Positions 2,365 through 58,741 are shown, counted from the first letter of the stretch. The stretch is DNA of 64,000 bases from Candidatus Omnitrophota bacterium (GCA_020057115.1 JAGVGJ010000010.1:615-64614), one strand, 5' to 3'. Notes: generated from the sequence alone by a model not told the origin. Made by a program: numbers and translations.

Positions 2365-3732
2365 ATGCTGATAGATACGCATTGCCATCTGGATTTCAAG
2401 GATTTTGACAACGACCGGGACGAGGTGATCGCACGCGCCAGGGATGCCGGCATTCTCAAAATAATAAATGTCGCAAGCTCCATAGAGGGGACGCGTCGCG
2501 CATCAGAGCTTGCAAAAAAATATGAGGCGGTCTATGCGACGGTCGGGATACACCCTCATGCGGCCGAGACTGTTACGGACGAAGCGATCGATGAGCTTAA
2601 GAAAATAGCTAAAGAAGACAAAGTCGTGGCTGTCGGCGAGGTCGGGCTTGACTATTACCGCAACCTCGCGCCTAAAGATAGGCAGGCGGATGCTTTTAGA
2701 AGGTTTATAAGGCTTGCCGTGGAAACCGGCAAGCCTTTGATCATCCATTCAAGAGAAGCGGATAATGACATTTTGGGCATATTGCGCGAGGAGTGCGGCA
2801 ATACGGTAAAAGGCGTAGTCCACTGCTTCGCCGGGGATGAGAAGTTCCTTGAGGATTGTCTCGGCATGGGGTTATATATATCGTTTACGGCAAATCTTAC
2901 TTTTAAGAAGGCGGATAATTTAAGGACGGTCGCGAAACGCGTTCCGATCGAGCGCCTGATGCTCGAGACGGATGCGCCGTTCCTGGCGCCGCAGGATGTT
3001 CGCGGGAAGAGGAATGAACCCGCTTACCTGACGTACCTGGTGAAGGAGTGGGAAAACATATCGGGGCTTTCCGCCGAGGATATCGCAAGGATAACGACCC
3101 ATAATGCCAACAGATTATTCGGCCTGAACATCCGCGAAGATACGAGGATCGTTTATCCGATAAGAGGATCCCTGTATCTCAACATAACCAACCGCTGCAC
3201 GAACAATTGCTATTTCTGCGTCCGCAATTCCACTGAGTTCGTAAAAGGGCACAACCTGAAGCTCGACAAGGAGCCTTCCGAGCCGGACGTCCTGGCAGCG
3301 ATGGGCGATCCTAAGAAGTATAAAGAGATAGTCTTCTGCGGGTATGGCGAGCCGACCATAAGGCTGGATGAGGTAAAGTCTATTTCACGGAAGATGAAGG
3401 CGCTGGGGCTTAAGGTGAGGCTTGTGACCAATGGCCACGGCGATCTCATAAATAAGCGTCCGATAGCCGCTGAATTGTCCGGGCTTATAGACAGGATATC
3501 GGTCAGCATGAATGCCGAAGACGCGGATAAGTACGAAAAGATATGCGAGCCGGCCTTCGGAGCTCTTTCGTACAAGGCGGTCCTGGATTTCATAAAGGAT
3601 TGCGTCAATAACAAGATCGATGTCGAGGTCACTTGTCTCGACCTTCCGGAGATCGATATGGCGAAGTGCGAATCCCTCGCGAGGTCTCTTGGGGCCAGGT
3701 TCCGCCCGAGGTCATACGGGGTGGTCGGATGA
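2365..3732 (+). CDS. TatD-family metal-dependent hydrolase fused to a C-terminal radical SAM domain (TatD-associated radical SAM type)
   Basis: N-terminus MLIDTHCHLDF plus internal HxH, HCF and ETDAPFL motifs typical of TatD DNase/hydrolase. From about aa 265, NITNRCTNNCYFCVRN (CxxxCxxC radical SAM cluster motif) and FCGYGEP resemble the small radical SAM family normally encoded next to tatD. Here both parts are in one continuous ORF. Confidence 0.8.
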   Translation: MLIDTHCHLDFKDFDNDRDEVIARARDAGILKIINVASSIEGTRRASELAKKYEAVYATVGIHPHAAETVTDEAIDELKKIAKEDKVVAVGEVGLDYYRNLAPKDRQADAFRRFIRLAVETGKPLIIHSREADNDILGILREECGNTVKGVVHCFAGDEKFLEDCLGMGLYISFTANLTFKKADNLRTVAKRVPIERLMLETDAPFLAPQDVRGKRNEPAYLTYLVKEWENISGLSAEDIARITTHNANRLFGLNIREDTRIVYPIRGSLYLNITNRCTNNCYFCVRNSTEFVKGHNLKLDKEPSEPDVLAAMGDPKKYKEIVFCGYGEPTIRLDEVKSISRKMKALGLKVRLVTNGHGDLINKRPIAAELSGLIDRISVSMNAEDADKYEKICEPAFGALSYKAVLDFIKDCVNNKIDVEVTCLDLPEIDMAKCESLARSLGARFRPRSYGVVG

Positions 3733-39243: not shown

Positions 39244-42200
39244 TTGAAGACAAATAGACAAATAAAAAAATTCCCATTATTCATCAGGATCATTGCGACT
39301 ATATTACTGGTCACTTTTTTAGTCCAGGATATAGCGTGGGCGCATCCTGACCCATTTACAAAAGATCCTTCCCGTCATGCAACACTTGCTCCGGAGCCGA
39401 TGTTTGACCATCCGGAAGACAAAGTTACGGCAATTTCAACATTACTCCAATCAAAGATAGAAAGTCACGGCGTCTTTAAGGGTAATGTATCGCTTACTGC
39501 CGTTGAACACATACTGGATCTTGAGGATATCTCCAAATGGTGTGACGAAAACAAGATCGCTATTTCCACGGAGCACACGTTCACGGGCAAACCTACGGAG
39601 ATACGCCTGGTGATGCCGCACGGCCGCGTGCTGCGTTATTATGACCCAAATATAAAGACACACGAGAATAAGGATACGGCTGCTCGCGGTACGGTAGTTC
39701 GCATTAATGCCAATTTATCTAAGCAGGCCATCGAATCAAATGATTTTTACAAGAAAAACTCGCAGGTCGGCACAACCTCAACGCATGTTGATCTTCAGGC
39801 GGCGATACGAAAAGAAAAGTCATCCGCTCACATCTCTCCGTTCCAGAAAGTCCACCCATCTCTGTACGAGCGCATATCCAACTACGGATTGATCGCCGTT
39901 TCGGCAGGGCTTATCCTTGCGTATTGGCTCATAGATACGATAGCGTATATGTATGTATTCTCAGATTCAGACGTCCTCTCCGCCCTTATGCCAAGCGACC
40001 CGTACAGGTATTTTACACGCGCGGTAACCGCATGCATGATCTTTCTTTTTGGTTCGGTTATTCAATTTTTCGTGAACAGGAACAAGAAGAGGTCCATAGC
40101 GCTGTCGGAGAGAAACCATATGTTCTTCCAGGTATTTATGGATATGGGCGTGGCTGCGCACAGGCTGGACATTTCCGGTAATATACTGGATGTAAATACC
40201 AAGTGGTGCGAGTGGATGGGGTATAAGCGCGAAGAGGTCATAGATCGACCCATATTTGATTTTATAGACCCTGAGCATAGGGGCAATGCAAGGGACCGTC
40301 TACTTGGCAGGATAAGGGGATTTACTGAGGTCGAGATACCGCAGAGGACAGGCGACAGGAGATATATAAGGAAGGATGGCACGGCGATACTTTCCGACAC
40401 ATTCCATACGATATTAAAAGACAGGTTCGGCCGTCCGATAGAGATATTGACCCAATTCAGGGACATCACGGAACAGCGCAGTATGGAAAAGGAGCTTGAG
40501 AAGAGCTTGAAGGAGCTGAAGCTTGTGAGCGATACAGATAAGCTGACAGGCGCGTATAGCAGGAACTTCTGGGACAGGCAATTCAATGCCATACTTGAGG
40601 CATTCAGCCGTACGAAGATACCGATATCCGCGATAATGTGCGATCTGGACGATTTTAAAATCGTGAATGACACGCATGGTCATGCAACCGGAGATGAAGT
40701 TTTGAAAGAATACGCCAGGGTCATGCTAGCAGACCGCAGGAAGACAGACTTTGTCATACGAGCCGGCGACAAGGGAGACGAGTTCATAATAATCCTTTTC
40801 AATACAGATGCCAAGGGCGCGTCTATAGCGGCTAATCGTATTCTTGAAAATCTAGCCACGGATCATAATGTGTTAAGTCCTGACGGAAAGCCCATATCCA
40901 TAAGGGCGAGCATGGGGGTCGCCCAGTTCCGCGAAGGCCAGACGAAGGAAGATCTTGTAAAGGCGGCGGATGAGGCCCTTTATATTGCTAAACAGTCCGG
41001 AAAGAGCAAGGTAGTAGTGACGGCGCCTTCTTCCGCGCTTAGCGAAGGGGATGCTTCGCCTGAGAGCAAGATGGCCTTCAAGCGCGTAGTTGAGAATATA
41101 AGGACAAAGCCGCGCAAATATTCCGATATCACCATAAGCGAAAAGTTTATATCCAACATGGCAGAGATAAGAAACAGGCTCCGCAAACTTGGCATCGAGG
41201 ATATCCTTGGAGACTTAAGAGATCTGCGCGTTCTGACGACAGATGCGGTGGTCTTGGGGCACGGAGATTTTTCTGTAGGTTTTTATTCAAAGGCTGAGGA
41301 CGATAAAAATAATCTTATCTCCGTGCTCGGTGAAGACGGGTTCAATAAACTCTTCCCAAGGCCTACGCTCGTCCTGCCCAGGGAGATGTTCGATGAATAC
41401 GACGAGCTTATACAGCAGGATTACATACTCCACAGGATAATATGCCATTCCAAGGGGCATCATACTTCCATGTTCATACAGCAGGCGGTCTATCCCGAGA
41501 ATTACAATTATGGGGCGTATGAAGAGGAGGCCGGCAAAAAATATATGCCTGGCTGTAAGGGCGACCCCTCCAAGCCGTTTAAAGGGCGGACCGGAGAGGC
41601 TATACAAAATATCATAAACGCCATCACAAAAGACCCTATCACCACGGTAATTATGCATGACCTGAAGAACAAGATACAGGGAGGATATGTCCTCGACCTG
41701 GTATTGAATAAATACAAAAAAGATGGTTCGGCGTTATCCGAGGACCTGCTAATGCTGAAGAAATACAGAGATATGATGGGATCTATGGGCAAGACGACGC
41801 TATCATTCTATGCAAATGGCGCCAATGAGACCGAGGCCATCACGGCGCTCAGCGATATGCTCCCAGAGCTTAAGAAGATGACGACTGCCATCAAGTTAAA
41901 GCTTCGATACGGGGCATTCGACTATGACATGGAAGATAAAGAAAAAATAGCGATAGTCATAAAGAACAGCGAAGAAGGGGTTGTCCCCGGCATCAATACA
42001 GCCATCAATATGCTCGGCCGCTCTCCGGAAGAGATCGACGTAGGGAGATTCATAGAAGATATAATTTCCAGGGCAAAATCGATCTTTATAATACCGGAAA
42101 ACACGAGAGTGGATCTGTCCATACCAAGCGAAGTAAGGCGTCTCAGCGGTATCCTTACATACAAGCTTATACTAAAGCTGACGCTTGAAGAGCTTTTAAA

Positions 42201-45200
42201 GAATGCCTCAGTGGACGGTCAAGCCAACAGGATAAAGGTCTCGGTCTCTGCAACAAGCGAGGGAGAGCTTAAGGTCATGGTGAGAGATTACGGCAAGGGC
42301 ATGTCCGAGGAGAGCTTAAAACGGCTCTTCATGCCCGGTAATGCCGCAGTCGAAGATAAGCGTTACGGCTCGGGTTACGGCCTGGCTGTCCTCAAAGAGG
42401 CCATAGATTCCGTTGGGGGGACCATAATTTACGACAACAAGGTCACCGATGGGCCCTCTTTTACATTCACGCTTCCTTTGGATGCCCCGCTGGACAAACT
42501 TAAGCGGCGTGCGCTGAAAGAGCCGCTCATGGTCGCCATGTGCGGGCGCCGCGGGTCAGGCAGGAGCACGGTCGGCCGCATGATCGCAGCCACTTTCGGT
42601 TTGCGCTATGTCAACTCCGGGTTCATATTAAGGGCGGTGCTGTATAAGCTTATTGAGGCGAAGAAGAGAGGCTCCCCGGTTGATCTGGGTGATCCTAAAG
42701 CTGTCGGCGCATTCGCGCAGGATTTCTTTGAAAAGAAGAGGATAGACTATTCAAAAGAGCCTGTCGGGATAGATGGCGTGGATAGCGCCAGTATCCTTGT
42801 GGATGGCTTAAGCCTGCGCGACAAGATAAAGATGCTTATATCGAATAAAGAATTCACAGACGGGCAGTCGAACGAGGAGTGGATGCACCGAGTGGCCGGC
42901 TATAAGACCGTCGACGAAGCCCTTGAAAATTTTATAAGGACGCTTGCCGTAGAGACAAAGGCATACGGCAAGTATAACGGCATAATAAGGATGGCTTCGG
43001 ACCCTGTCAAGAACGAGGATATTATCAATATAATGCTCGACGCCCCTACCTATATAAGGGCCAAGAGGTCCAATACCCCCATAGAAGAGATAGAGAAGCT
43101 TGATAGCGCTACCGGCAGAAAGAGCATGACCGGCAGGTATGCCAGGGTGGACATGATGATAGATACTGCGCACCTTACTGTGCGGCAGGCAGCCATACAG
43201 GCCATACGCTACATAGACGCAAGGGTGCTGTCGAAGGAGGCTGCCGATGGATTTATAAGCCAGGGCGACGCGGCATTTACAAGGATGGCTGAAAATATCG
43301 CATCCGGCAAGGTCGTGGATGCGACGCACGACCCGAGAATAGTGCTTGATATAGAGCGCCTGAAGAACCGCTTGGGTTTGCGTTCGATCGACGATCTCAT
43401 GGGAGCAGGATCGGCAGTGCGCATACTCGTGACCAATGATGTCGTGATAAACGAAAAAGATTTTGCGCTGGGGCTCTATTCCGAATCGCCTGCCGTCAAG
43501 GCGCGGCTTATCCAGGTAATGGGAGAGGAAAAATTTAAACTGGCTTTTCCCAGACCTACCCTGGTATTGACGACCGAGGTGCTTCTTAATAAAGATGAGA
43601 ATATAAGGCAGGAATATATCTATCATGAGGCGATATGCCATGCGAAAGGGCATTATGAGGCCATCCTCGCCCAACAGAAGGTATTCCCGAAAAATTATAC
43701 GGGCGACTGCGAGGAGGGAGCAAACGGCCTTAAGTATGTGCGGGGTTTTGCCGGAGTGAAGGATAAGCCGTTCAAAGGCCGGTTAGGGAGCGCTCTTACA
43801 GCCACGATCAAGATGGCTACCGATCCTATAATAAGAGAGGTGCTGCATGATCTTAACAGTAAGTTCAGTACCGCGGGCGGCTTTGCTTTATACTCCGTAT
43901 TAAAGCGGTATTCGGAGGAAGAGATCGAAGCAGACAAAAGGCTCAAATTGCTTAAAGAATATTGTGCCCTGACGCTGGAGCTCAGGAACGCGTGTATCGG
44001 TTATCTTAGCGGGGAAGCGACCATGTCGGATGTCATGGATATATTTAATGAGCACCTGAAGAGGTTCACGTCATTGACCAGCAGCATTACCGAAAGATTT
44101 AATAACAACGAATATAACGATACCGAGAGGTCCAAGAACGGCATGAAAGTGCTGGTCGAGTATAGCGGCGTATCCATAAACCTCATGAACAGGGCCATGA
44201 ACTGGATAGGCAGGTCTATGGACTCTGTGGATGTAGAAGGCTATCTTGCAAATATCATAGGATCATACAGGGCATCGTTAAAAGAGAGCGCCACGCACGG
44301 AAATAAGTATGTAGAGATAAATGACGCCAAGATATCTCCCGAAGCAAGGCGCCTGAAAGATATCTTCACCTATAAAGAAGTCTTGCGCATGACCATAGAG
44401 GAGCTCGTAAAGAATGCTTTAAAATACAGCGGTACGGATAGTATCGATATAGAGGCATCTCTCACCAAGGACGGCGATCTTGAGTTCAAGGTCATAGACC
44501 ATGGTAAAGGCATCCCTGCGGATACGCTGAAAAAATTATTCACCCCGGGTTTCACGGAAGCTAAAGATTCCAGGATAGGAACAGGCTACGGCCTCGTGTC
44601 TCTCAAAGATGCCATAGGATCGGTAGGGGGCTCGATAAATGTAGAGAGCAAGGTCGGCGAGGGGACCACCTTCATATTTACTCTGCCGGCTAACGGAGAG
44701 ATAGGCGCCCTTAACAGGCCCAAGCTCTATGACCCGATCATAGTAGCCGTGAGCGGCTTGAGAGGGTCGGGTAGGACGGTGGTGTCGCGCTGGATCGCTT
44801 CAAGGCTGGGCTTGAGATATATAAATCCGCGGTTCATGATGAGGGCCATGGTAGCGACGCTTCTCGAAGCCAGAAAGAATGGCCGCGCCATCGACCTGAA
44901 AGACGGGGATGCCGTAGCCGCATTCGCCGAAGAGTTCTTCGGCAAAAGGAGGCTCGACTATTCTGTTGAACCTGTAAAGCTGGACGGCGTCGATACTTCT
45001 GTTCCGGATGAGAAGGACGGTCTCTCGCTGCGCGACAAGATAAAGACAGAGATAGACGACGGCATTACCGATGGAGAACCGAATACCACCATACTTGACA
45101 ATATAGCGCACTATAAAGGGGTCCAGGCAGCGCTTGAGAAGTTCATAAAATCGATCGCAAGCGAAGTAAGGGCATCCGGCAAATATAACGGCGTCATCCG

Positions 45201-48200
45201 GCCCGGGACGGAACCCGTAAAAGATAATGAAGTCATAAATATAATGCTGGACGCTTCGTCCTATATAAGGGCCTCCAGGGCCAATAGGGGCATGGATTGG
45301 ATAGCGTCAAAGGACGAACTCACTGACAGGAAAAATATGGCCGACAAGCATCCGTATATTGACATCATAGATACTTCATACAGCACGGTCGAGGAGACAG
45401 GAGCGCGCGCGCTGGGTTATATAATGGGACATATCCCTATCACAGACGGTATGGTGAGAAAAGGCGACAAGGCGTTCCGCAGGATGGTAGGCAATGTCAT
45501 TGCCGGGAATTTCGCGGAGACAGGGCTCATGGTAGCGCCTGACCTCGAGAATGTCGCGAAGATAACAGGGGCCTCATGCATGGAAGAGCTGATAGGAAGC
45601 GATAAGCCGCTCCGCGTCCTTGTCACCAATGCCGTTGTCTTGAACCAGTCCGACTTTTCTTTCGGGTTCTATTCGCATGCTCCGCCCATAATGGCAAAGA
45701 TAATCTCTTTAGTGGGCGAGGATACCTTTAATAGCACATTCCCGGAGCCGACACTTATCCTATCGGCCGAGATACTCGCCAATCCCAGTCCTCAGATCCG
45801 CCAAGAACACATCCTTCACGAGATATTCTGCCATACTAAAGGCCATTCTCCGGCTGTCTTCGAAGAGCAGAGGCTCTTCCCCGGAAATTATAGTGCCGGT
45901 ACGTTCGAAGAGCGCGGCAGTAAAAAATATATAGCAGGCTACGCCTGGAATGAGGCGATGCCTTTTGACGGCGCGTTCGGGGATGCCCTACGCCAGGTGA
46001 TCGACAAGAAGCTTGCCACGACCACGACCGGAGAATTTGCCCGGCCCAAGGGGAAGGAACATACGAAGACCAGCGCCGCCTTTATGACGGCCGATCTGAT
46101 CGCGCAGGCCGAGAAACTTAAAACGACGAGCATGCAGGAGCAGGCATGTGCTCTTATATTGAAGGCCTTGAGCATCGTCGCGGAATCAGACCAGCCTGTG
46201 CCGTACGAAAACATAGCAAATATCAGGGCTTTTATCTGGGACGAAAGATCCAGCGGGCACGTGCCGGTGAATTTCGATGTCCTGTTGCCGGTCATCGATG
46301 AATATATGAATGACTGCAACCTGACGAAATTTCGCATAAAACTGAGCGCTTTGCGCAAGCACATAGAGTCGACATATACCAATATCTTGGCGATGTATAT
46401 CTATAAACAGCTGTCTCATCTATTTTTCAATTCGCTCCCGACCATCACGAGGTTTACCATATTGATATCTTCCAGGAAATACCCGAACGATCCGTCGCTT
46501 AAAGAGATGATAGAGCTCTCAAGCGAGATGGATCGTTCCATGCGTAACCTCGGCGATGAATCGAACAGGTTAAGGAGCGTCGATTCTCTTATGAATTTTC
46601 TTACGGTATCCGATGAATCACTTTCAAGACAAAGGGCGCTCCTAGATGCGTTCAGAGCCGAGCATCCGGAGCTGCTGCGTCTCGACAGCCGCCTCAGGGG
46701 CAACATAGAAGCTATAAACGCTGAGCTCGAGAAGCTCGCGAGAGCGCGGAGCTTGCTGGCGCTTACGCTCGGTAACAAGCCTTCGCTCGAAGAGATAGCG
46801 GAGAGGGTCGATCTTGTAGTCGCCAAGATGGAGACCGGCGTTAAGACGCCGCGCATCGCATGGGTGGGCGGTCTGGTGCCATATTCCAATACTCTCTCCA
46901 CGGTGAAGGAAGGCGAGCCGGTCAAGGTAAGCATGCGTGTATATATACCGGGCTTTACTCCTCAGGAGATAGACTCAAAAACAGGTATCAAGAAATTTGC
47001 CGAAGGCTTCATAAGGGCCGAGATATGGACGAATGCCATATCTGATCCGGAGGCCAGTTCGGTGGAGGCCTTCAAACCGATAGATATGCGTTTTGACGGC
47101 GTAGGAGGGCGGGAAGGGCATGATTACATATTTACAGGCTTTATCCCTGCAAAATATGCCAGCCAGATAGACAGTAATGGCAGGCCGAAAGAATTCCGTT
47201 TTACGGCCCGAGCCGCTATAAAGAATGAGCTCGGAGGTATAGAAGGGGAATGGGCATATTCCGATAATCCGTATAAGACGAATGTCAACTGGCATGGCGA
47301 CGGAAGGATCGTCGTTCTGTCCAGGGATCCGGAAGAGGACCGCGGCAATCTGGTTGGGAGGGTCTTCAGCGATACGAACGGCAAGGATCAGGTGACTCAT
47401 AAGATATCCGGAAGGATCGAGAAGGGCTTCCTCAACAACGACTACCTCGTCCTTTACGGCGAGGATGGAAAGGTCTTATACGCTAAGGATGGCAAAGAGG
47501 CGCGTGTTAAACTTGAAAGTCCGGCCGTTAAGACAGATCTTGGCTATATTGTATACATGCTTGAGCCAAATGACCATATTCACGGTTTCGCCAGCCGCGA
47601 TAAAGTATTTATGGCAGATTTCATGTTCTATGACAGGGTCCTTTCGTATCATGAGATGAAAGAGGCATACTATAGCGTCCATCCGGATGAGGTTCCTGAA
47701 GGCATAGAACCGCACACTTATTTAAGAGGTTGCGGCAAAGGCATTAGGAACACGGCCGCTTATGCGGTACGTTACGAAAACCTTGATAAAAATTTTACCG
47801 CCGGTCAGCTTAAAACATGGATGAAAAATTCTCTGGCGCCTGAGGATAGGGGCACAGATTCCGAGATGCGGCTCATCGAACATAACGCTTCCAAGGGCAA
47901 GAAGGGCATGGAGCTTCTGTATGGTGAGCAGGACAGGGTATTCGGCCCGAAAGCCAACATGAGGGCCACGGAAAAGATATCAGGGAAGATAAAGAACAGA
48001 AATGATTATAGCCTAAGCAGGGACAAGGTCGTCCTTGTGGTAGAGTTGATGAAATTAAGGCCCGAGGCATTCCCTAACAGCATCGATGCAACCGTCAAGA
48101 TGTTGGGCGAAGGTTTTGATGTATTCAAGAAATATGATTTCCAGGGGCATACGCCTGTTGATGCGGCGCATTATCATTCGGACTACAAGAAGTGGCATGG

Positions 48201-51200
48201 AGCCTTGCTAAAGCTTATAGAATCCGATCCGTCCGTCCCGGCGCATTTTGATAGCATCTCAATGTCCTCCTTGCTTGAAGCCTTGCGCGATCAATACGGT
48301 TATATCAATGCCAAACTCAATTGGGCATGGGCTATTGAGGGCATGTGGAAAGATACGCTTGACGGTATGGAAAAGTATCCCAGAGAGAGCCAGATGGCGA
48401 GGTTCAAGGGCTTGGGCATATTTAAGCGGCACGATGATTTCATGAAGGATTATGCGGGTTCATATTATATAGAGAATGACGATGCTGTTAATAAGGCTAT
48501 GAAAGCGGTGGAAGAGACGCTAGGTTTTATAAATTCACGGGTGCCGTCGATATTTGTTAAGGACGAAAAGCCTGATGGGTCTGCTCCGGTAGCCGCCATA
48601 AAGAAGAATGCTCCACTGGGAGAACGTGCTATCAATTTTATGAAGAGCGGCAGGGCCAGCGAGATCGCCCAGTTCGTAGCGCTCGCTTTCATAATCTCTA
48701 TCGCATTATCCTGGGTTCTTCCGGCTAATTGGCTCACATTGTCTATAGCTATCATAGTTCCTATTACGCTCTTCTTCTTGTTGCCATGGACATGGAAGAC
48801 ATTGCTTGTGAATGTCGCGATAAGCGTCGTACTCTGGTATTGGCTGCCCTTGCCATGGTTCGGGCTCTCTATGGCCATTCTTACGATCGCAAACGTCGCT
48901 AAACACAACATAAAATTAAAGCCCCATCTTAAGCCTGAGGCTGTCCCTGCGGAAAGATCGGTTTTAGAGGAGAAGAAAGCCGAAAAAATATTATCCGATA
49001 TAACCATAGATAGAGAAATATTGGCCCGCATCCTGAAAGCGATAGAAGTTTCCAAAGAAGGGACCGATAAGGCCGATGCCAATGATGCGTTAAAGAAGCT
49101 CGACGATGCCGATATCATAACGCAGCTATTCGATTTCGGTTCAGGGACAAAAGGGTATGAAAAACCCGTTAAAGAAACCAAGGAGAAGCTGCGGCTCGGC
49201 GTAAGAAGGGCGTTCGATGATATCAAGGGCGGTCTCAACATAGAGTACAAGGATATGATAGAGCGCCTCAAGAACTGGAAGAATGAGAATGATGAAGCTT
49301 TAGCCGGAGCTCTCCAGGACCTGTCCCAGGAAGTCATGGATTTTATTATAAATTCGAATCATGCGGCAGACAATAAAGTCGACAGGCTTGCCGTAAGAGA
49401 GCTTATAGCCGAAGAGTGCGGGATAGATGCCGCGAGGTCAGAAACTATAAGGCTAAGGATGGCGCTGGATGTGCAGAAGGATGACGTAGCTTCAAATGAG
49501 ATGATAGGATCCGCATCAGCGAATGACCATTTCTTCCTGGCCGCTCTCCAGCTCAAATTTGGGAATTACATCAAGGCAGAGGAGAGCTTCGGACGCGCAG
49601 TAGACCTTGACCCGACCAATGCCGATTACAGGCTTGCGCTCGGGCTCGTTGAACATATATTTAGAAAATGGATGGCTGCGCGGACAGCTTATAATGCTGC
49701 TTCGAACTTCTATGATATCGAGGCCGGTGTATCGAAAGCCGCAAAGGCCAAGAAGGAACTTGCGGAATTCCTGAGGGAGAAAGCGCGCGCCGAAGCGCCT
49801 CTCATTATGGAGAAGAAAACCAACGGCAACTTGATCGGGAAACTATTCATAGACAAAGCCGCTACCGTTCAGATCAAAGAGGGCGTTATAGCCAAAGAAG
49901 AGATGGGCATCCTTAAGTTCTTCGCCCCCAATGGAGATATCCTTTATACCAAGAGCGGCGTTCCGGCGGCAGTGAAACTGACCGGCCAGATAATAAAGAC
50001 AAAGTCAGGCCACCAAATAAAGATCGTAGAGGACAATGAACATATACGCGGGTTCGCAGATAAGGATAATGCTTATCTTGCAGACTCCTTCGCAAAGAAT
50101 CCCATCGCCAAATACCATGAATTACAAGAGTCACATTACGCCGCCCACCCTGAAGAACTTCCCAAAGGCGTCAATTCCCATACCTATATAAGAGGATGCG
50201 GCAATGATGCCAGAGAAGCTTTAAGGACATCAAGAAAGAAAGATCTCCAGGATATCACCGCAGACGACCTCATCAAATACTTGAAGAAGAGGCTGCCGAA
50301 AGAAAGGCATAATGAGAATGAGTTCAACCTCATCAGATATAACGGCGAGCAAGGTAGAAAAGGGCTTGACCTTATATATGGCCTGCAGGATAGGGAATTC
50401 GGAGTAGAGGCAAATGAGCTATTCAGCGATGCGCTTATTATATTAGAGAAGCCTGAGCCTGCCGCCCAAGCTGCGCCTAAGACACAGCTAAGGACTGCTG
50501 ACGAAGTATTGTTCCGCGACTATTTTGAGGACCTGTTCGAGAAAAATATAGAAATGTTCATGCTCCTGTCGGTAAGGATGATGGGTAGCGATGCCGAAAA
50601 GAAGAGCGTTTTAAAGCGCCGGAATGCGCTCGTGCAGGAGCTTCTCGCGCTGACCGATAAATACAGGTCGCAGGATTTCGCAAAAGAGGAATACAGGAAA
50701 GTAGTCACATTTGTAAATGAAAAGATATTAAGGACTGTCGAGTTGGTAGACGGTGACAATGAACCGGCTGCTGCCTGGTGCTTGTTCGGCGCCATAAATG
50801 TGATAAGCGATACGCGCCTTGAGATGCAGGCCAAATGGCTCTCGGGAATAAAAGAACGCCGCGCCAGGATCTGGCGAAACGGCGGCATACTCACATATCC
50901 GAGAGGCGGCTATCGCATATTGGAAGGCTCGAAGCGCACTGTTATCGACCGCACGGAAGCCACGTTCAGCTCCATGTGGGAGGTTATGCGCTCGCTGTTC
51001 CATCAGGTGGACGGAGAGCTTGAAGAGAAGCGGAAAGTGTCCGGCCTGATATATGAGATAGACGGTTTCATGCTGGAGCTTTTCGACAAGAACTATGAGC
51101 TTAATGACGATGAGCGCGCCGCTATGAGCAAAAAGATCGGCCTCCTGGCAGCTTCCATGGCAAAGGAGAAAGGCGAGCTGAAGTATGAAGATAAGCGTAT

Positions 51201-54138
51201 AGCCAAACTTCTTTTGAATGCATCAGGCATGATCACGCGGCTAGGCGATCGTCACCTGAAGAGCGTCAAGGGCTTCCTTGAAATGGCGATGAGCCATCTC
51301 AGGATCAGGGAAGCGGATGCGATATCTATAGCCACTCATTGCAATAATTCCGGTCTCAACTGGGTATGGGTAGAGTCTTTAAAACGGGATTCCAGGATCA
51401 GGAACTTGGCCATTTCAGCCCTGAAGAGCATAGAAAGAAAAGACCGCAGGTCCGCGCTAGGCGCTATAAAGGGTATCACAAGATTAAATGAGATAAAGAA
51501 TGAGCCGGAATATAAGCCCATTTATAATATCCTCTGGCCTGTAGTAAAAGCCATAGAGGAAAATAAAAAGCCTCTCGAAAGCGCTATAGCCCCGCTCAAC
51601 CTCGTGTTGGAAAAATATAATAATTCGCGCCTTCTGCACAATATGCTTAGAGAATACAGGGATAAGCTTGTCGAAAAAGAGATGGCGTCGCTCGAACCTA
51701 TTGACAGGGATGCGTTCCTGAAAGATATATTTGACATGTCTGCAAAACAGAGCGACTTCCCCAAAACACCTAATCCGGTCCAGGCCCGCGCCAGATGGTG
51801 GGCAAAGCTACACCAGGCGGTGAATATACCGCTTATGATAGACGATCCTGTCAAACGCGGAGAGCGCATCCCTAATCCGGTATTTGAGGCGGCTTCGGAC
51901 TATGCGTATATCCTGGAATTCGGGAAATTGGATGAGCTGGTGAAGATGCCATTCATGCAGGCCGCTAAGCTCGGTGTGACAAGGCCGTATCTGGAGAATA
52001 TACTGAAGCGCCGGCCTTATAGCCATTTGATCCGTACGGATATGCCGAACCTTGTAGCGGCGCTATCCAAAGATTATGGCCTTGATCCTGACCAGGCAAG
52101 ACTTCTTGATGGATGTATCAGGATAGAAGAGTTTAGCGGCGCCACGCCTGCGGTTACGGCCGGGCCTCAGGTTCCTTCGATAGTTTCGCCTTTAAAGGTG
52201 CTTGATGGTATGCGGATAACAGATGAAAAGAGAGAGTCCTTCAGGCTGCGCATAGGGCGGTCGCTGAATAATAATAAATACTCGGACACCATATTCATCA
52301 CAAGAGAATCGGATGGCGAGTCGGTAGGCATGATAGAGACCATAGTGGCTGAGGATAGCAAAACCGGCTCGTGGTCGATAGAGCTTGGCCTTGCCAAGAT
52401 AAATCAAGACGTAAAAGGAACGAACTATAGGAATAGAGGCATATTCCTTAGAGTTATGAACCTCTTGGGCAAGGTCATACCCGAAGGGTCTGAGATGAGC
52501 ATAACCTCTGTCGAAGAGACCAGGACATTAAAGACCCTTGCCGGAGGAAAGAGCTGGTATCAGACCATGATGGGCAAGACATTATACAGGAGCGGCTGGA
52601 AGCTGCAGGAACTATTCATATTCGACAGGGGCAGCTCCAGTACTTATGTCTCTTTCGACAGGCTGGAGAAATGGAAAAGCGATTTTCCTGTAGATAAGGG
52701 CGGTTTTCAAAGCGCGCTCGCTCAGGCGATAAAGGATATCGACAAGACCGATGCGATAGATGATGCTACCGTAGGCGCGGTGTTATCTAAGATAGATAGG
52801 AGCGCAGTGGCTGAGGGCAAGGCCCGTATTGTGCAGCAAGCCGATAAAGGCATTCCTTCCGACAAACAACTTGTATGGATAAACATCCATGGTTTCGTTG
52901 ACCAGGCCAAAGGGCCTTTAGAGAAGAGGATACGGGAATCGATCGCAAAACAAGGTCTTATAAAGAATATACATGATGTCAGCTTGGGAGTGCTTCCCGA
53001 TGAAGTGCGTTCGCACGTGAAGAGCGTATTGGAAGACGAGGCCAAGCCTGTAAGCAATATAGTGCTATCGGGACATTTCTTTGCTACGATCTCGGAATAC
53101 CCCGGATGTATCGAGAGCGCGATACGGGGCGTCTGTGATGCGCTTGGGACCAGCGGCTATAGGATCATCCTGCCGCTCGACCTGATAGATAATAGCGATG
53201 AGACGGTCACGCCCGCCGATCTGGTATTTCTTTTGGGATTCACCCAGTTAGATAAAGAGAATAGCCTCGTATATATAGATGATGCTCCTGTGGCCAAATG
53301 GAGCGAGGCCAAGGCGGATAAAGGCGCTCCTGTCGAGGTCAGGTTATATACCACAAGTGAAAAGATGAAGGCGTATCTTGAAAAGAACGATGTCTCTGCG
53401 GGATCTTCGCGTGCGCCGGAGAGCAAAACATTGCCGGTGCCGAAAGAATCTCCCGAAATATTGTTCGCCAGATTTATGTCGAAGGCGGATATGATAAAAT
53501 ATTCCGCAGGCCAGGCGCTCGAAGGGTTTAGGCCGGGAGAATTCATAAAAGAGAAGGGCCTGATACTTTACGCCGACAGCATCCTTGAACATGGCGCTGT
53601 TGCAGAACTTGAAGATGCCTTGAAGAATACAGGGATATTTAATGAGATGAACATAGTGGTATATGGAAAGAAGCCCGGCATGGCCTGGCTCCTTGAAAAG
53701 ATAATAAGAGGGGCGAATAGCACAGTCAATGTAATAACCGTAAGCGAGGCAGATCTTATAGAAAAGTCCGGCACCAAAGAGATATACATAGATGAGACAA
53801 AGGAGCTTGATTCTATAATCAAATATGCCGGAGCCAAGGGGATAAATAACGGGAACCTCCTCGGCGTCATAAAGGGCTCTACGGCAGCCGCAAGCATAGG
53901 GAAGATAAGAGAGCTCTTAAGCGAGCGCAAGGTCCCGGTCGTCTCATTCGAATCCGCTGATGGCGTATACTCATTTGCAGCGGCCATCGGCATATTAGCA
54001 AAGTTAAAGAATAACATCGACCCGAAGATGAACAACTACTTCGCGGTACTTCCTCCGATAAAGAAGCTTTCGATAGAGTTGGACAGGACCTACCGGGAAT
54101 ACAGGGAAGCGCTCAAGAAGCTCCTCTCAAGCGCCTAA
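39244..54138 (+). CDS. giant multidomain membrane-associated signalling protein (4,964 aa). Domains: N-terminal TM, PAS, GGDEF-like, 2x [novel HExxCHxKGH domain - HATPase_c - cytidylate-kinase-like] supermodules plus a third novel-domain copy, 2x a second novel domain, an internal 3-TM cluster, TPR-like region.
   Basis: Uninterrupted 14,895-nt reading frame (apparent TTG start). A hydrophobic N-terminal anchor and two to three TM helices lie at 39880-40075. PAS spans about 40110-40500. The GGDEF-type domain spans about 40540-41010, with RAGDKGDEF at 40759-40785. Large internal repeats with about 2.2 kb periodicity lie at 41050-46000. HATPase_c N/G1/G2 boxes (ELLKNA...DYGKGM...GSGYGL and ELVKNA...DHGKGI...GTGYGL) lie at about 42150-42480 and 44350-44690. 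Cmk-like domains (CGRRGSGRST...GLRYVNSGFILRAV and SGLRGSGRTV...GLRYINPRFMMRAM) lie at about 42524-43120 and 44735-45300. Three TM helices lie at 48655-48900. Confidence 0.85.
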   Translation: MKTNRQIKKFPLFIRIIATILLVTFLVQDIAWAHPDPFTKDPSRHATLAPEPMFDHPEDKVTAISTLLQSKIESHGVFKGNVSLTAVEHILDLEDISKWCDENKIAISTEHTFTGKPTEIRLVMPHGRVLRYYDPNIKTHENKDTAARGTVVRINANLSKQAIESNDFYKKNSQVGTTSTHVDLQAAIRKEKSSAHISPFQKVHPSLYERISNYGLIAVSAGLILAYWLIDTIAYMYVFSDSDVLSALMPSDPYRYFTRAVTACMIFLFGSVIQFFVNRNKKRSIALSERNHMFFQVFMDMGVAAHRLDISGNILDVNTKWCEWMGYKREEVIDRPIFDFIDPEHRGNARDRLLGRIRGFTEVEIPQRTGDRRYIRKDGTAILSDTFHTILKDRFGRPIEILTQFRDITEQRSMEKELEKSLKELKLVSDTDKLTGAYSRNFWDRQFNAILEAFSRTKIPISAIMCDLDDFKIVNDTHGHATGDEVLKEYARVMLADRRKTDFVIRAGDKGDEFIIILFNTDAKGASIAANRILENLATDHNVLSPDGKPISIRASMGVAQFREGQTKEDLVKAADEALYIAKQSGKSKVVVTAPSSALSEGDASPESKMAFKRVVENIRTKPRKYSDITISEKFISNMAEIRNRLRKLGIEDILGDLRDLRVLTTDAVVLGHGDFSVGFYSKAEDDKNNLISVLGEDGFNKLFPRPTLVLPREMFDEYDELIQQDYILHRIICHSKGHHTSMFIQQAVYPENYNYGAYEEEAGKKYMPGCKGDPSKPFKGRTGEAIQNIINAITKDPITTVIMHDLKNKIQGGYVLDLVLNKYKKDGSALSEDLLMLKKYRDMMGSMGKTTLSFYANGANETEAITALSDMLPELKKMTTAIKLKLRYGAFDYDMEDKEKIAIVIKNSEEGVVPGINTAINMLGRSPEEIDVGRFIEDIISRAKSIFIIPENTRVDLSIPSEVRRLSGILTYKLILKLTLEELLKNASVDGQANRIKVSVSATSEGELKVMVRDYGKGMSEESLKRLFMPGNAAVEDKRYGSGYGLAVLKEAIDSVGGTIIYDNKVTDGPSFTFTLPLDAPLDKLKRRALKEPLMVAMCGRRGSGRSTVGRMIAATFGLRYVNSGFILRAVLYKLIEAKKRGSPVDLGDPKAVGAFAQDFFEKKRIDYSKEPVGIDGVDSASILVDGLSLRDKIKMLISNKEFTDGQSNEEWMHRVAGYKTVDEALENFIRTLAVETKAYGKYNGIIRMASDPVKNEDIINIMLDAPTYIRAKRSNTPIEEIEKLDSATGRKSMTGRYARVDMMIDTAHLTVRQAAIQAIRYIDARVLSKEAADGFISQGDAAFTRMAENIASGKVVDATHDPRIVLDIERLKNRLGLRSIDDLMGAGSAVRILVTNDVVINEKDFALGLYSESPAVKARLIQVMGEEKFKLAFPRPTLVLTTEVLLNKDENIRQEYIYHEAICHAKGHYEAILAQQKVFPKNYTGDCEEGANGLKYVRGFAGVKDKPFKGRLGSALTATIKMATDPIIREVLHDLNSKFSTAGGFALYSVLKRYSEEEIEADKRLKLLKEYCALTLELRNACIGYLSGEATMSDVMDIFNEHLKRFTSLTSSITERFNNNEYNDTERSKNGMKVLVEYSGVSINLMNRAMNWIGRSMDSVDVEGYLANIIGSYRASLKESATHGNKYVEINDAKISPEARRLKDIFTYKEVLRMTIEELVKNALKYSGTDSIDIEASLTKDGDLEFKVIDHGKGIPADTLKKLFTPGFTEAKDSRIGTGYGLVSLKDAIGSVGGSINVESKVGEGTTFIFTLPANGEIGALNRPKLYDPIIVAVSGLRGSGRTVVSRWIASRLGLRYINPRFMMRAMVATLLEARKNGRAIDLKDGDAVAAFAEEFFGKRRLDYSVEPVKLDGVDTSVPDEKDGLSLRDKIKTEIDDGITDGEPNTTILDNIAHYKGVQAALEKFIKSIASEVRASGKYNGVIRPGTEPVKDNEVINIMLDASSYIRASRANRGMDWIASKDELTDRKNMADKHPYIDIIDTSYSTVEETGARALGYIMGHIPITDGMVRKGDKAFRRMVGNVIAGNFAETGLMVAPDLENVAKITGASCMEELIGSDKPLRVLVTNAVVLNQSDFSFGFYSHAPPIMAKIISLVGEDTFNSTFPEPTLILSAEILANPSPQIRQEHILHEIFCHTKGHSPAVFEEQRLFPGNYSAGTFEERGSKKYIAGYAWNEAMPFDGAFGDALRQVIDKKLATTTTGEFARPKGKEHTKTSAAFMTADLIAQAEKLKTTSMQEQACALILKALSIVAESDQPVPYENIANIRAFIWDERSSGHVPVNFDVLLPVIDEYMNDCNLTKFRIKLSALRKHIESTYTNILAMYIYKQLSHLFFNSLPTITRFTILISSRKYPNDPSLKEMIELSSEMDRSMRNLGDESNRLRSVDSLMNFLTVSDESLSRQRALLDAFRAEHPELLRLDSRLRGNIEAINAELEKLARARSLLALTLGNKPSLEEIAERVDLVVAKMETGVKTPRIAWVGGLVPYSNTLSTVKEGEPVKVSMRVYIPGFTPQEIDSKTGIKKFAEGFIRAEIWTNAISDPEASSVEAFKPIDMRFDGVGGREGHDYIFTGFIPAKYASQIDSNGRPKEFRFTARAAIKNELGGIEGEWAYSDNPYKTNVNWHGDGRIVVLSRDPEEDRGNLVGRVFSDTNGKDQVTHKISGRIEKGFLNNDYLVLYGEDGKVLYAKDGKEARVKLESPAVKTDLGYIVYMLEPNDHIHGFASRDKVFMADFMFYDRVLSYHEMKEAYYSVHPDEVPEGIEPHTYLRGCGKGIRNTAAYAVRYENLDKNFTAGQLKTWMKNSLAPEDRGTDSEMRLIEHNASKGKKGMELLYGEQDRVFGPKANMRATEKISGKIKNRNDYSLSRDKVVLVVELMKLRPEAFPNSIDATVKMLGEGFDVFKKYDFQGHTPVDAAHYHSDYKKWHGALLKLIESDPSVPAHFDSISMSSLLEALRDQYGYINAKLNWAWAIEGMWKDTLDGMEKYPRESQMARFKGLGIFKRHDDFMKDYAGSYYIENDDAVNKAMKAVEETLGFINSRVPSIFVKDEKPDGSAPVAAIKKNAPLGERAINFMKSGRASEIAQFVALAFIISIALSWVLPANWLTLSIAIIVPITLFFLLPWTWKTLLVNVAISVVLWYWLPLPWFGLSMAILTIANVAKHNIKLKPHLKPEAVPAERSVLEEKKAEKILSDITIDREILARILKAIEVSKEGTDKADANDALKKLDDADIITQLFDFGSGTKGYEKPVKETKEKLRLGVRRAFDDIKGGLNIEYKDMIERLKNWKNENDEALAGALQDLSQEVMDFIINSNHAADNKVDRLAVRELIAEECGIDAARSETIRLRMALDVQKDDVASNEMIGSASANDHFFLAALQLKFGNYIKAEESFGRAVDLDPTNADYRLALGLVEHIFRKWMAARTAYNAASNFYDIEAGVSKAAKAKKELAEFLREKARAEAPLIMEKKTNGNLIGKLFIDKAATVQIKEGVIAKEEMGILKFFAPNGDILYTKSGVPAAVKLTGQIIKTKSGHQIKIVEDNEHIRGFADKDNAYLADSFAKNPIAKYHELQESHYAAHPEELPKGVNSHTYIRGCGNDAREALRTSRKKDLQDITADDLIKYLKKRLPKERHNENEFNLIRYNGEQGRKGLDLIYGLQDREFGVEANELFSDALIILEKPEPAAQAAPKTQLRTADEVLFRDYFEDLFEKNIEMFMLLSVRMMGSDAEKKSVLKRRNALVQELLALTDKYRSQDFAKEEYRKVVTFVNEKILRTVELVDGDNEPAAAWCLFGAINVISDTRLEMQAKWLSGIKERRARIWRNGGILTYPRGGYRILEGSKRTVIDRTEATFSSMWEVMRSLFHQVDGELEEKRKVSGLIYEIDGFMLELFDKNYELNDDERAAMSKKIGLLAASMAKEKGELKYEDKRIAKLLLNASGMITRLGDRHLKSVKGFLEMAMSHLRIREADAISIATHCNNSGLNWVWVESLKRDSRIRNLAISALKSIERKDRRSALGAIKGITRLNEIKNEPEYKPIYNILWPVVKAIEENKKPLESAIAPLNLVLEKYNNSRLLHNMLREYRDKLVEKEMASLEPIDRDAFLKDIFDMSAKQSDFPKTPNPVQARARWWAKLHQAVNIPLMIDDPVKRGERIPNPVFEAASDYAYILEFGKLDELVKMPFMQAAKLGVTRPYLENILKRRPYSHLIRTDMPNLVAALSKDYGLDPDQARLLDGCIRIEEFSGATPAVTAGPQVPSIVSPLKVLDGMRITDEKRESFRLRIGRSLNNNKYSDTIFITRESDGESVGMIETIVAEDSKTGSWSIELGLAKINQDVKGTNYRNRGIFLRVMNLLGKVIPEGSEMSITSVEETRTLKTLAGGKSWYQTMMGKTLYRSGWKLQELFIFDRGSSSTYVSFDRLEKWKSDFPVDKGGFQSALAQAIKDIDKTDAIDDATVGAVLSKIDRSAVAEGKARIVQQADKGIPSDKQLVWINIHGFVDQAKGPLEKRIRESIAKQGLIKNIHDVSLGVLPDEVRSHVKSVLEDEAKPVSNIVLSGHFFATISEYPGCIESAIRGVCDALGTSGYRIILPLDLIDNSDETVTPADLVFLLGFTQLDKENSLVYIDDAPVAKWSEAKADKGAPVEVRLYTTSEKMKAYLEKNDVSAGSSRAPESKTLPVPKESPEILFARFMSKADMIKYSAGQALEGFRPGEFIKEKGLILYADSILEHGAVAELEDALKNTGIFNEMNIVVYGKKPGMAWLLEKIIRGANSTVNVITVSEADLIEKSGTKEIYIDETKELDSIIKYAGAKGINNGNLLGVIKGSTAAASIGKIRELLSERKVPVVSFESADGVYSFAAAIGILAKLKNNIDPKMNNYFAVLPPIKKLSIELDRTYREYREALKKLLSSA

Positions 54139-56261: not shown

Positions 56262-58741
56262 ATGAATATGAAAAAACTAACCATAGCGTTAATGATCCTC
56301 GCGGCGATCGGCATATTTGGATGCCTGTCGACCGCCTATGCCGAAAATAACACATGGGATGGTTCTGAATCTAATCTATGGAGTGCCCAGGCAACTGGAG
56401 CCTGGGTCATGATCCTAACCATGCCGGCTATGGCGGTGAAGTTGCCAGCCTAACATCATCTTATTCAGATCCGGTCCTTAACATGACTACCCCCGCACTC
56501 TCCGGCCTTACTATAGATTCAACGAACCTTACGGCGTCGGCAAGCGGTTTTACGCTCAACGTAGGAAGCGCCTCTTCATCCGCCAATATGATACTTAATA
56601 ACACGGCAGACACGCAAATGAATATTGGCAGTTCGGACTCTAGTTACAACTTTACCACGAAGGTATATGGCAACCTTACCGCAAATGATGACAAGATCAC
56701 CGTGTACAGCACTATAGACTTGATCACAGCTCCAAATAGTATTGAATTCAGGAACCCCGGCGGAGCGATATTTAAAAATGTAATTATGGAATTTAATGGC
56801 GGCAATACTAGTCGCATCGTTACCATGTATAACAATACCACGATAGATGGGAATCTGACCCTGCGGAATAATTTCTCAGGGAACGGAGGCATTAGTCTTA
56901 TGGGCTACGGCTCCCCGATCGTGGCAGTTATCGGTAATTTCGACATGCCATATTCAAGCGCCAACGCTGGTTTTAACAGATTCGGAGACGGCGGGCATAA
57001 TTTAAATTTTAGGTTAGGCGGTAACCTAACCGTGGGGGAGTATTATTCCGCAGCCCCTACCACCGAGATACTATTAGATGATATCACTTTCAATGGGACT
57101 GGCAACCAGGCGGTGAATATTACGCCAAACAATAGCATCGTCGGCACAAACCAGAAATCCGTATTCATCGTTAATAAAGATAGCGGCGCTGTGGCTTATG
57201 AGACAGGCAGCTATGCTCAAAAATATCTGCCCTGGTATATTAATAAAGGAGAGCTGGCCGGCACTATTGCGTCCGGCACTATAACGTCCGGAGCTATAAC
57301 TGCATATAATCATTTTGCCGCAACAACAGACGCGGTATTTAGCGGATCGTTATCGTCCAATCCGTCAACCGTAACATTAGATCCTATTTACTCAAATATA
57401 GAAGTTGATAATCCGAGCTCTACGGGGTTCACAAGGGTCGCATCGTTGCTTGGAGCAGATTATAAAGCCCCGGGCGGTGAGCATTTTAATGATCTTACGC
57501 TAATCACAGGGGCTGTTGGTTCCGGAGCTGGAGTTGGTCATGTCGCTTTTTACGGAAACGCAAGCACTAGCGATATCGATCTTTACGTAGACGGAACATT
57601 TAAGGTAGACAGGCCTGCCGGAGCCACGAATACCCTGTATGTCGATGGGTCAGCTAATAAACCGACGCTTCAGGTCTATGACGCCGTTTTTACAGGCACA
57701 AGCGGGACTTTTTCTGTAGGATCTGCATATGGCATGGACATAAATATAAGTAATGATTTTACGTTGAGTTATGCCAATGGTTCTATTAACAACACCACTT
57801 TAAAGTTTAACGGCGCTGACGAACAATTGTTTACATATACGGCGGGCACTATTCACGCTACTTCCTCGTTGGTGGTAGACAAACCGTCAGGCACGCTTAA
57901 ATTTATGAGTGATAATAAGACGAGCAATGCCTCGCTCACGGTTTCAAGCGGCACACTCGATCCTAACGGTAATACATTTACCGTCTATCAAAAAAATATC
58001 TCTATAGGAGCTGACGGCGTGATCCAGGGTAAAGGTACTATCGGTATTACGCAAGATGTTCCAAAGTCTTATACCTTCACCAATAACGGCAAGGTCATAG
58101 CCGATGGCGGCGGGGCTGACAGCACGCTAACCATCAACACTACGGGCGCGATCAAAAACACTTTTGATAATACCGGAGATTCCGGATGGTATGCTTTGAA
58201 TAAGGGCATGCTCGCGCTGCCCGGCCAGAGCATTACTACCGGATCGAATAAGACCGTCTATTGGGGTGAAGAGGCTGATGCCGATGCATTGCCTGATATG
58301 GTCAATAGCGCCAAGCTTACCTTTAACAATGTAAGTTCGGTAGGTACTTTCAGCATCAACCTTATGGCTTCGGATAGAAGCGATATCGAGGTCTCTCTGG
58401 ATAATCAAGCCTATGCGAGTTATTGGGATGTCAATTTTACCGGCGCCTTCAATTATGTTGACATGATATTTAAATATGACGATTCTATGGTTCAATCCCT
58501 TGGTATTGAGGAATCGACGCTGAAGTTCTACCACTTTACCGGTGGGGAATGGGTCGATGTCACCACACAGCTTGATACCGAAAATAATCTCCTCTATGCG
58601 TCTAATGTTACTTCGTTCAGCGATTTCAGCGCGCAAGGTAACATTACAGCCAATGTCCCCGAGCCCGCAACGATGGTGAGCTTATTGAGCGGACTGGCGA
58701 TGATAGGTTTCAGGAGAGTGCATAGATCAGGTAAGAAATAA
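56262..58741 (+). CDS. PEP-CTERM sorting-signal surface protein 1, with an apparent frameshift between signal peptide and body
   Basis: C-terminus VPEPATMVSLLSGLAMIGFRRVHRSGKK is a PEP-CTERM motif followed by a TM helix and Arg cluster. The Ser/Thr/Asn/Gly-rich body reads in one frame from 56378. A canonical signal peptide (MNMKKLTIALMILAAIGIFGCLSTAYA, SD AGGAG upstream) is encoded 56262-56350 in a different frame that terminates at 56453. Confidence 0.6.

Follow-up and report, generated by a model that had tools for sequence, protein, structure and literature searches.

A cytidylate-kinase-like domain with a predominantly arginine-bearing P-loop adjoins histidine-kinase modules in giant proteins of Candidatus Omnitrophota

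What function remains in a nucleoside monophosphate (NMP) kinase fold that carries arginine in place of the Walker-A lysine of its P-loop, and that occurs twice within a single, very long protein? This question is raised by a 64,000-nucleotide stretch of DNA from a Candidatus Omnitrophota bacterium (GCA_020057115.1 JAGVGJ010000010.1:615-64614; this whole analyzed stretch is referred to below as the window), which harbors a giant open reading frame (ORF) whose product contains two segments resembling bacterial cytidylate (CMP) kinase (CMK), here called CMP-kinase-like (CMKL) domains (Table 1). A first-pass annotation of the window had proposed that these domains bind rather than phosphorylate a nucleotide, acting as a sensor module within the giant protein, or that they use a noncanonical mechanism. 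Based on profile searches, a family alignment and structure prediction, we hold, with moderate confidence, that CMKL is a CMP-kinase-derived, largely non-catalytic module that binds a phosphate group or a nucleotide as the partner of a histidine-kinase module.

Two segments with the fold of CMP kinase

The first-pass annotation had located two CMP-kinase-like P-loop domains within positions 42524-45300. The peptides on which it relied were indeed found in one frame of one ORF, i.e., CGRRGSGRS at residue 1100 (nucleotide 42541), YIRAKRSN at residue 1270 (nucleotide 43051) and SGLRGSGRT at residue 1837 (nucleotide 44752), and the Walker-A lysine is replaced by arginine in both copies (Arg 1107 and Arg 1844), although the domains themselves were found to extend beyond that range at either end (Table 1). 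The two copies share 47% identity over 258 alignment columns (E 2e-77). When searched alone, the segments score 31.1 and 27.7 bits (E 2.5e-7 and 2.6e-6) against the Pfam family Cytidylate_kin (PF02224), thereby narrowly passing its cut-off of 26 bits, and copies 1 and 2 align to nearly the full length of a profile built from canonical CMP kinases, with 58.0 and 48.3 bits. A profile of the CMKL family described below matches CMP kinases with an E-value of 4e-11, both in the N-terminal part, which comprises the P-loop and the NMP motif, and in the C-terminal part, which comprises a strand, the start of the lid and the DT motif. The profile-profile comparison that had been recommended for these segments was carried out with hhalign, using on the CMK side 37 canonical enzymes plus E. 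coli Cmk (which served for numbering only), and aligned the two families over 206 columns with a probability of 99.9% (E 6.3e-31). Single-sequence searches of the PDB with the CMKL segments gave weak matches, the best of these with an E-value of 0.002.

An AlphaFold2 (AF2) model of the domain, computed from an alignment of 31 sequences, reached a mean predicted local distance difference test score (pLDDT) of 93.0 and a predicted template-modeling score (pTM) of 0.87; with the two window copies alone the pLDDT was 40. The predicted fold is that of the NMP-kinase core with the insert in the NMP-binding domain that is typical of CMP kinases. The resemblance of CMKL to CMP kinase is much closer than chance would produce, and each CMKL segment is judged, from the profiles and the predicted fold, to descend from a bacterial CMP kinase with retention of its fold. 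A fortuitous P-loop resemblance was considered as well and was rejected given the matches obtained with Pfam, with the canonical CMK profile and with the family profile.

The CMKL family, its P-loop and its nucleotide contacts

All of 1.84 billion cluster representatives were scanned with HMMER, using a profile of the two window copies; 347 proteins matched at E <= 1e-3, of which 32 reached E <= 1e-10 and 14 reached E <= 1e-30. The strong matches, representing about 35 relatives, are clearly set apart, and the remaining matches are ordinary CMP kinases. A word-indexed protein search, performed with a single domain and with the 31-sequence alignment, yielded no matches, though the database protein corresponding to the giant ORF itself (P0001) is present in that collection. 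Many members of the family are very large (4,047 to 7,967 residues) or are contig-truncated parts of large proteins, and all database members with a named organism (P0008, P0010, the P0014 cluster, P0020 and P0029) belong to Candidatus Omnitrophota. Furthermore, a degenerate DNA pattern for GLRY(I/V)NxGFxxR, run over the GTDB species genomes, returned 26 loci, six of which are true and about 20 of which are chance matches. One of the six true loci is labeled Omnitrophota and five are labeled as ‘uncultured Planctomycetia’ metagenome-assembled genomes (L001, L007, L016, L017 and L019, where L017 is the contig of P0002); this taxonomic label could be generic or wrong. We regard CMKL as a small and previously undescribed domain family that is restricted to Omnitrophota. 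The Pfam CMK model scores at or below its threshold in relatives (28.8, 20.7 and 20.8 bits, or no match), and the domain is therefore usually left unannotated.

In a neighbor-joining tree (calculated without support values) the CMKL family is monophyletic with respect to CMP kinases, and the two window copies are sisters. Each of these copies is part of a repeat unit of approximately 733 residues, which consists of an unannotated module designated modA, a histidine-kinase module and the CMKL domain, and which is duplicated in the giant protein. This duplication emerged from blastp self-comparison with chunked queries; comparison of the whole protein with itself returned the diagonal only. From the tree and the duplicated unit, the window copies are thus in-paralogs that arose within the lineage, and they therefore inherited the arginine from a family ancestor. 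The first-pass annotation had pointed to a substitution conserved in both of two ancient copies; as each other’s closest relatives, the copies do not count as independent evidence for it.

The family is recognizable by a set of specific sequence blocks, i.e., a loop of the type SGLxGSG(R/K)(R/K), LRYINxGFxxR, RIDYSxEP, SLRDxIK, YNG, TEP and RAxR. Both window copies possess all of these, the sole deviation being a Ser or Thr rather than Arg or Lys after the Walker-A arginine. The consensus of the CMKL P-loop reads S-G-L-x-G-S-G-R-R, compared to the canonical G-x-x-G-x-G-K-[ST]. Among 31 aligned domain copies, the position of the Walker-A lysine, which is K18 in E. coli Cmk, is occupied by Arg in 23, Lys in four, Asn in two, and His and Ala in one each, so that 27 of the 31 carry a basic residue. 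Arg is also present in four further GTDB loci and in P0031, P0032 and P0033, and Lys in the fragment P0040. The subsequent residue is Arg in 17 copies, Lys in nine, Glu in three, and Ser and Thr in one each, the latter two being the window copies. The second glycine of the P-loop is retained in 19/31 copies and is replaced by His, Tyr, Leu, Lys, Arg or Cys in the other twelve. By comparison, the canonical, non-family CMK matches from the HMMER search that include a P-loop possess Lys in 105 of 106 cases.

The first-pass annotation had asked whether the substitution is conserved in related giant proteins, which for the most part it is, and had named orthologues with Lys, or placement in a different P-loop family where Arg is normal, as evidence against its interpretation. 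Both situations are found in part: CMKL makes up a subfamily that normally carries Arg, and a few members (P0008, P0014, P0029 and P0040) bear Lys, the Lys-bearing members being nested in the tree among Arg-bearing ones. The Arg codons of relatives vary synonymously (AGA, AGG and CGA), and the residue is therefore taken to be maintained rather than recently acquired. Sequencing error as the source of the arginine was ruled out, since both copies and their relatives carry it, with varied codons. The interchange of Lys and Arg, together with the synonymous Arg codons, fits selection for charge, and hence for binding, rather than for catalysis. A position that is kept basic yet is mostly not Lys, in a loop that has decayed in over one third of the members, is unlike a catalytic Walker-A motif, and these features are consistent with the earlier suggestion that the domain binds rather than phosphorylates.

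Other residues were mapped using the HMMER and hhalign alignments, and counted by column in the 31 copies, with reference to E. coli Cmk, whose numbering and residue roles we take to be those of the structural and mutagenesis literature. R41, the arginine that binds the NMP phosphate, is retained (Arg in 26/31), as are R154 and R157 at the start of the lid, within the RAxR block (Arg in 29/31 and 25/31), and D182 (Asp in 29/31). In domain numbering, R107 of the SLRDxIK block never varies, and R45, R187, R190 and D202 do so rarely. Other positions have changed: the equivalent of Ser 36 is found in 3/31 copies, R181 is replaced by Leu, D185 by Thr (24/31) and R158 by Ser, R188 is Lys or variable, and the S101 and R110 columns are variable. 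Of these, S101, R110, R181, D185 and R188 make the sugar and base contacts in E. coli Cmk. In the region of the DSGxxYR motif, copy 1 (NSGFILR) retains the Ser and the Arg, and copy 2 (NPRFMMR) the Arg only. Where CMP kinases have the GRD motif (131-132), after strand 3, the family has Y-N-G-x-x-(x)-R-x-(T/S)-(E/D)-P; the corresponding stretches are YNGIIRMASDP (copy 1) and YNGVIRPGTEP (copy 2), with an acidic residue four positions after the Arg. The lid is about 12 residues shorter than that of CMP kinases, and an extra insertion follows the beta-hairpin. The NMP-binding and lid regions that the first-pass annotation had recognized are thus present as segments, but with most of the CMP contacts changed and with a shortened lid. 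Given that most of the residues expected to contact CMP are replaced, CMP itself is unlikely to be the ligand.

These replacements also bear on another explanation of the locus, namely that the segments are ordinary housekeeping CMP kinases that have been fused into a large protein. The scores above the PF02224 gathering threshold and the fact that no other cmk gene was found in the window would agree with this, yet it is hardly credible: against the NCBIfam equivalog model for cmk (TIGR00017) the copies obtain 23.0 and 24.5 bits, approximately 110 bits short of the cut-off of 135.55, the Walker-A Lys is absent, R181, D185, R110 and S101 are not conserved, the GRD motif is probably lost as well, and the family occurs only as kinase fusions within a single phylum. 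The equivalog scores, the lost residues and the family context effectively refute an ordinary fused cmk. CMKL is accordingly classed here as a homologue of CMP kinase that, by the sequence features which define that family, is not itself a CMP kinase.

A histidine-kinase partner and the possible roles of the domain

Profiles of the giant protein’s own repeated modules were mapped onto all members of the CMKL family. Among the 32 members that are uncut within or just before the domain, 30 have a kinase module whose end lies no more than a few residues from the start of CMKL, and the linker that joins the two, LP-x-NAPLD-x-x-RP, is conserved. The exceptions, with no match to the kinase profile upstream of the domain, are P0032, P0033 and P0031, which looks incomplete and in which Pfam found nothing either. 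Among complete sequences CMKL is never free-standing. This adjacency, which the first-pass annotation had missed, is the most informative result of the analysis: in nearly every non-truncated member CMKL is the C-terminal partner of a histidine-kinase module.

The kinase assignment is based on a Pfam HATPase_c match over two stretches of the giant protein (E 2e-39), on matches to NCBIfam sensor-kinase models, and on the conservation of the H, N, G1 and G2 boxes across the kinase modules of the family. The H-box histidines, His 805 (in HDLKN) and His 1535 (in HDLNS), are conserved in the family, and the H-box region has no HisKA-type match in Pfam. The H-box and the N-box are separated by some 170 residues (41641-42190 and 43831-44400, + strand), an unusually long spacing that suggests an inserted subdomain. 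No Response_reg domain was detected by Pfam in the 4,964-residue protein, to which this search was confined, response regulators elsewhere in the genome not having been searched for.

The sensor role previously suggested for the domain is a plausible proposal. We infer that CMKL no longer turns over CMP and ATP and that it has been repurposed with its fold kept. A remnant arginine-rich cleft, composed of the Arg or Lys at the Walker-A position, the R41 equivalent and the lid arginines, would hold a phosphate-bearing ligand, perhaps a nucleotide, perhaps a phosphorylated group that belongs to a partner or to the kinase module itself. By holding this ligand, CMKL would regulate the attached histidine kinase or read it out. 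CMKL occupies the location at which hybrid kinases have a receiver domain.

A number of observations weigh against this proposal. The arginine-rich cleft was derived from sequence mapping rather than from model coordinates. The alignment of the GRD region is ambiguous, in that HMMER pairs R164 (domain numbering) with R131, and Met or Pro with D132, and hhalign places gaps there. Several arginines are conserved, and so is an acidic residue close to the GRD position, which is what one would expect of an enzyme. The loops of the two window copies read GxxGSGR[S/T], with all three glycines intact and the Ser or Thr that is unique to them after the Arg, and these copies look more catalysis-competent than their relatives. 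Finally, the natural Walker-A substitution K14L in Kti12 lowers the affinity for ATP, with turnover being kept at high ATP (PMC7363723).

The main alternative is that CMKL, at any rate in proteins such as this one whose loop is intact, has remained an active phosphotransferase, which would use a non-canonical Arg- or Lys-bearing P-loop and act on something other than CMP. Such an enzyme would account for the window loops and for the strong conservation of the family blocks from LRYINxGFxxR to RAxR, including the invariant Arg of SLRDxIK, and Kti12 provides a precedent for functional replacement of the Walker-A Lys in a P-loop kinase-fold ATPase (PMC7363723). We nevertheless consider it rather unlikely, although a serious possibility. 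In 12/31 copies the second glycine of the P-loop is replaced while the other motifs stay, and the conserved function therefore does not need a canonical P-loop; moreover, the contacts that CMP kinases make to sugar and base are lost and the lid is truncated. Engineered Lys-to-Arg replacements in Walker-A motifs generally cripple catalysis, which counts against an active enzyme as well.

The same decay of the P-loop in many members could be taken further, to suggest that CMKL is an inert structural spacer or an oligomerization domain without ligand, which provides scaffolding in very long proteins, and giant Omnitrophota proteins are indeed rich in unannotated repeated modules (bioRxiv 10.1101/2023.11.21.568195). 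This appears improbable, however, in view of the basic Walker-A residue in 27/31 copies, of the invariant R107 and of the nearly invariant R45, R187, R190 and D202. The conserved polar and charged positions map to the nucleotide cleft of CMP kinases, which would be unexpected for a pure scaffold.

The neighboring kinase raises yet another option, i.e., that CMKL itself is the phosphoryl acceptor of the attached histidine kinase, or the site that holds the acceptor, in place of a receiver. It adjoins a kinase module with a conserved putative H-box, the giant protein yielded no Response_reg match, and the ATP-side loop is degenerate with the acceptor-side arginine (the R41 equivalent) retained. 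Even so, this option is purely conjectural and we regard it as very improbable: we know of no precedent for a phosphoryl-acceptor role of such a domain, and the near-invariant D202 is the counterpart of D182, a residue that ordinary CMP kinases conserve too, and is hence not a new acceptor. By extension, kinase and CMKL could constitute a new type of phosphorelay unit, in which a phosphoryl group from the histidine would be delivered into the CMKL cleft, where it would either be passed on to a nucleotide or small molecule bound there or serve as a signal that switches neighboring modules; this is decidedly a long shot.

The giant gene and its modules, and comparison with known systems

The giant ORF is a real gene. 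Its product is the same, the initiator residue aside, as P0001, a protein on record both at NCBI and at JGI/IMG from a contig of 98,931 bp. Pfam identifies PAS, GGDEF, two HATPase_c, two Cytidylate_kin and TPR stretches in this protein, and the order of the features in and upstream of the repeated units is given in Table 1.

Table 1. Window coordinates of the giant ORF and of the features located in its 5′ half
Feature	Position	Strand	Residues and motifs	Basis
Giant ORF	39244..54138	+	4,964 aa; TTG start; frame 1	
PAS and GGDEF, upstream of the repeated units	40150..41007	+	aa 303-412 (PAS); aa 430-588 (GGDEF)	Pfam: GGDEF E 9.5e-35, PAS_9 E 2.1e-11
modA copy 1 (unannotated)	41071..41643	+	aa 610-800; HRIICHSKGH	Internal repeat; no Pfam match
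Histidine-kinase module 1	41641..42507	+	aa 800-1088; H-box HDLKN (His805), N-box ELLKNA, G1 DYGKGM, G2 GSGYGL	Pfam HATPase_c, NCBIfam sensor-kinase models, motifs, family alignment
CMKL domain 1	42499..43269	+	aa 1086-1342	Pfam, profiles, AF2 model
P-loop, copy 1	42544..42570	+	G1101-RRGSG-R1107-S-T1109; Arg codon AGG at 42562-42564	Translation
modA copy 2	43270..43833	+	aa 1343-1530; HEAICHAKGH	Internal repeat; no Pfam match
Histidine-kinase module 2	43831..44718	+	aa 1530-1825; H-box HDLNS (His1535), ELVKNA, DHGKGI, GTGYGL	Pfam, NCBIfam, motifs, family alignment
CMKL domain 2	44710..45468	+	aa 1823-2075	Pfam, pairwise alignment, profiles
P-loop, copy 2	44755..44781	+	G1838-LRGSG-R1844-T-V; Arg codon AGG at 44773-44775	Translation
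modA copy 3 (no kinase or CMKL module after it)	45469..46029	+	aa 2076-2262; HEIFCHTKGH	Internal repeat; no Pfam match

The modA module, of approximately 190 residues, is present in three copies with 35-40% identity, which share an H(E/R)xxCHxKGH motif at residues 730, 1461 and 2192. One copy precedes each kinase-CMKL pair and the third stands alone. Searches of Pfam and the PDB returned no match for modA, and its His/Cys motif suggests a candidate metal site. A second internal repeat, designated modD, is located at 47344-47958 and 49825-50415 (+ strand; residues 2701-2905 and 3528-3724); its two copies are 37% identical, contain conserved HIHGFASRD/HIRGFADKD and HTY(L/I)RGCG stretches, and have no Pfam match. 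The active-site motif of the GGDEF domain (40738-40785, + strand) reads GDKGDEF, with a two-residue insertion relative to GGDEF, and is preceded by an RKTD stretch resembling an I-site (RxxD); the cyclase activity of this domain may be altered. Hydrophobic segments are found at residues 7-34, 215-235 and 259-278 (39262-40077, + strand) and as a cluster at residues 3137-3205 (48652-48858, + strand). The three N-terminal segments would formally place the nucleotide-using region of PAS, GGDEF, kinase and CMKL domains outside the cell.

The genes flanking the giant ORF are those of an ordinary bacterial chromosome, with PNPase, BacA, FtsK, RodZ and a MiaB-like protein encoded upstream, and CinA, a PEP-CTERM protein, RecA and HtrA downstream. 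The interval from the giant gene to recA includes a 787-codon ORF (56378-58741, + strand), the product of which matches no Pfam family, and a 547-codon ORF (58802-60445, + strand) whose product ends in a PEP-CTERM sorting motif. Nearly all large ORFs of the window are on the + strand, and the GC skew is positive throughout with a steadily climbing cumulative skew, which is consistent with the leading strand of one replichore.

As regards known systems, the parent fold of CMKL is that of the bacterial CMP kinase Cmk (PF02224, TIGR00017; PDB 3r20, 1kdo, 3akc and 2h92), from which CMKL is distinguished by the Arg at the Walker-A position, the GSGRR consensus, the kinase fusion and the lack of free-standing members among complete sequences. 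The best functional parallel for CMKL as a proposed binding module is the guanylate-kinase-like (GK) domain of MAGUK proteins, i.e., an NMP kinase that has lost its P-loop and its enzyme activity and that binds phosphorylated partners via the former NMP/phosphate site. This is an analogy and does not imply shared membership, as the MAGUK GK domain is eukaryotic, derives from guanylate kinase and has no linkage to histidine kinases. Kti12 of Eurotiomycetes (K14L; PMC7363723) likewise represents a natural and lineage-wide loss of the Walker-A Lys in a P-loop kinase-fold domain, but with Leu instead of Arg, with ATPase activity retained at high ATP and in an Elongator/tRNA context. In hybrid histidine kinases (DHp-CA plus receiver), as in the kinase-CMKL arrangement with its putative H-box, HATPase_c is directly followed by a domain in the receiver position. 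In the kinase-CMKL arrangement this is a conserved, family-specific domain with a P-loop NMP-kinase fold rather than a CheY-like one; the absence of a HisKA match in Pfam and the gap of ~170 residues between H-box and N-box are further differences. 

The giant proteins of Omnitrophota known as ‘Archaeovorins’ are membrane-anchored and multi-domain, with HATPase_c, GGDEF and TPR being frequent (bioRxiv 10.1101/2023.11.21.568195). They share with the protein described here the phylum, a very long, membrane-anchored multi-domain build and these three domains, CMKL relatives reaching 7,967 residues, but at 4,964 residues this protein is far below the Archaeovorin giants of at least 30,000 residues, and their glycosyltransferase, hydrolase and NUDIX hallmarks were not detected in it by Pfam. 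A cytidylate-kinase-like domain is not mentioned in that preprint or in a 2026 Omnitrophota preprint, and our search of the available literature found no report of a fusion of a cytidylate-kinase-like domain to a histidine kinase, or of a natural Walker-A Arg.

If the non-catalytic, ligand-binding interpretation of CMKL is correct, the family would represent a bacterial NMP kinase that has been turned into a non-canonical, possibly non-catalytic module, in parallel to the GK domains of MAGUK proteins, with both the parent enzyme (cytidylate kinase) and the partner (histidine kinase) differing from that case. Should CMKL prove active instead, it would offer a rare natural example of a P-loop kinase that uses Arg. 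The natural interchange of Lys and Arg at the Walker-A position provides a system in which to ask what this residue is selected for once catalysis is no longer a constraint. For the very large proteins of Omnitrophota, the definition of CMKL turns a recurring and mostly unannotated stretch into a named domain with a hypothesis that can be tested.

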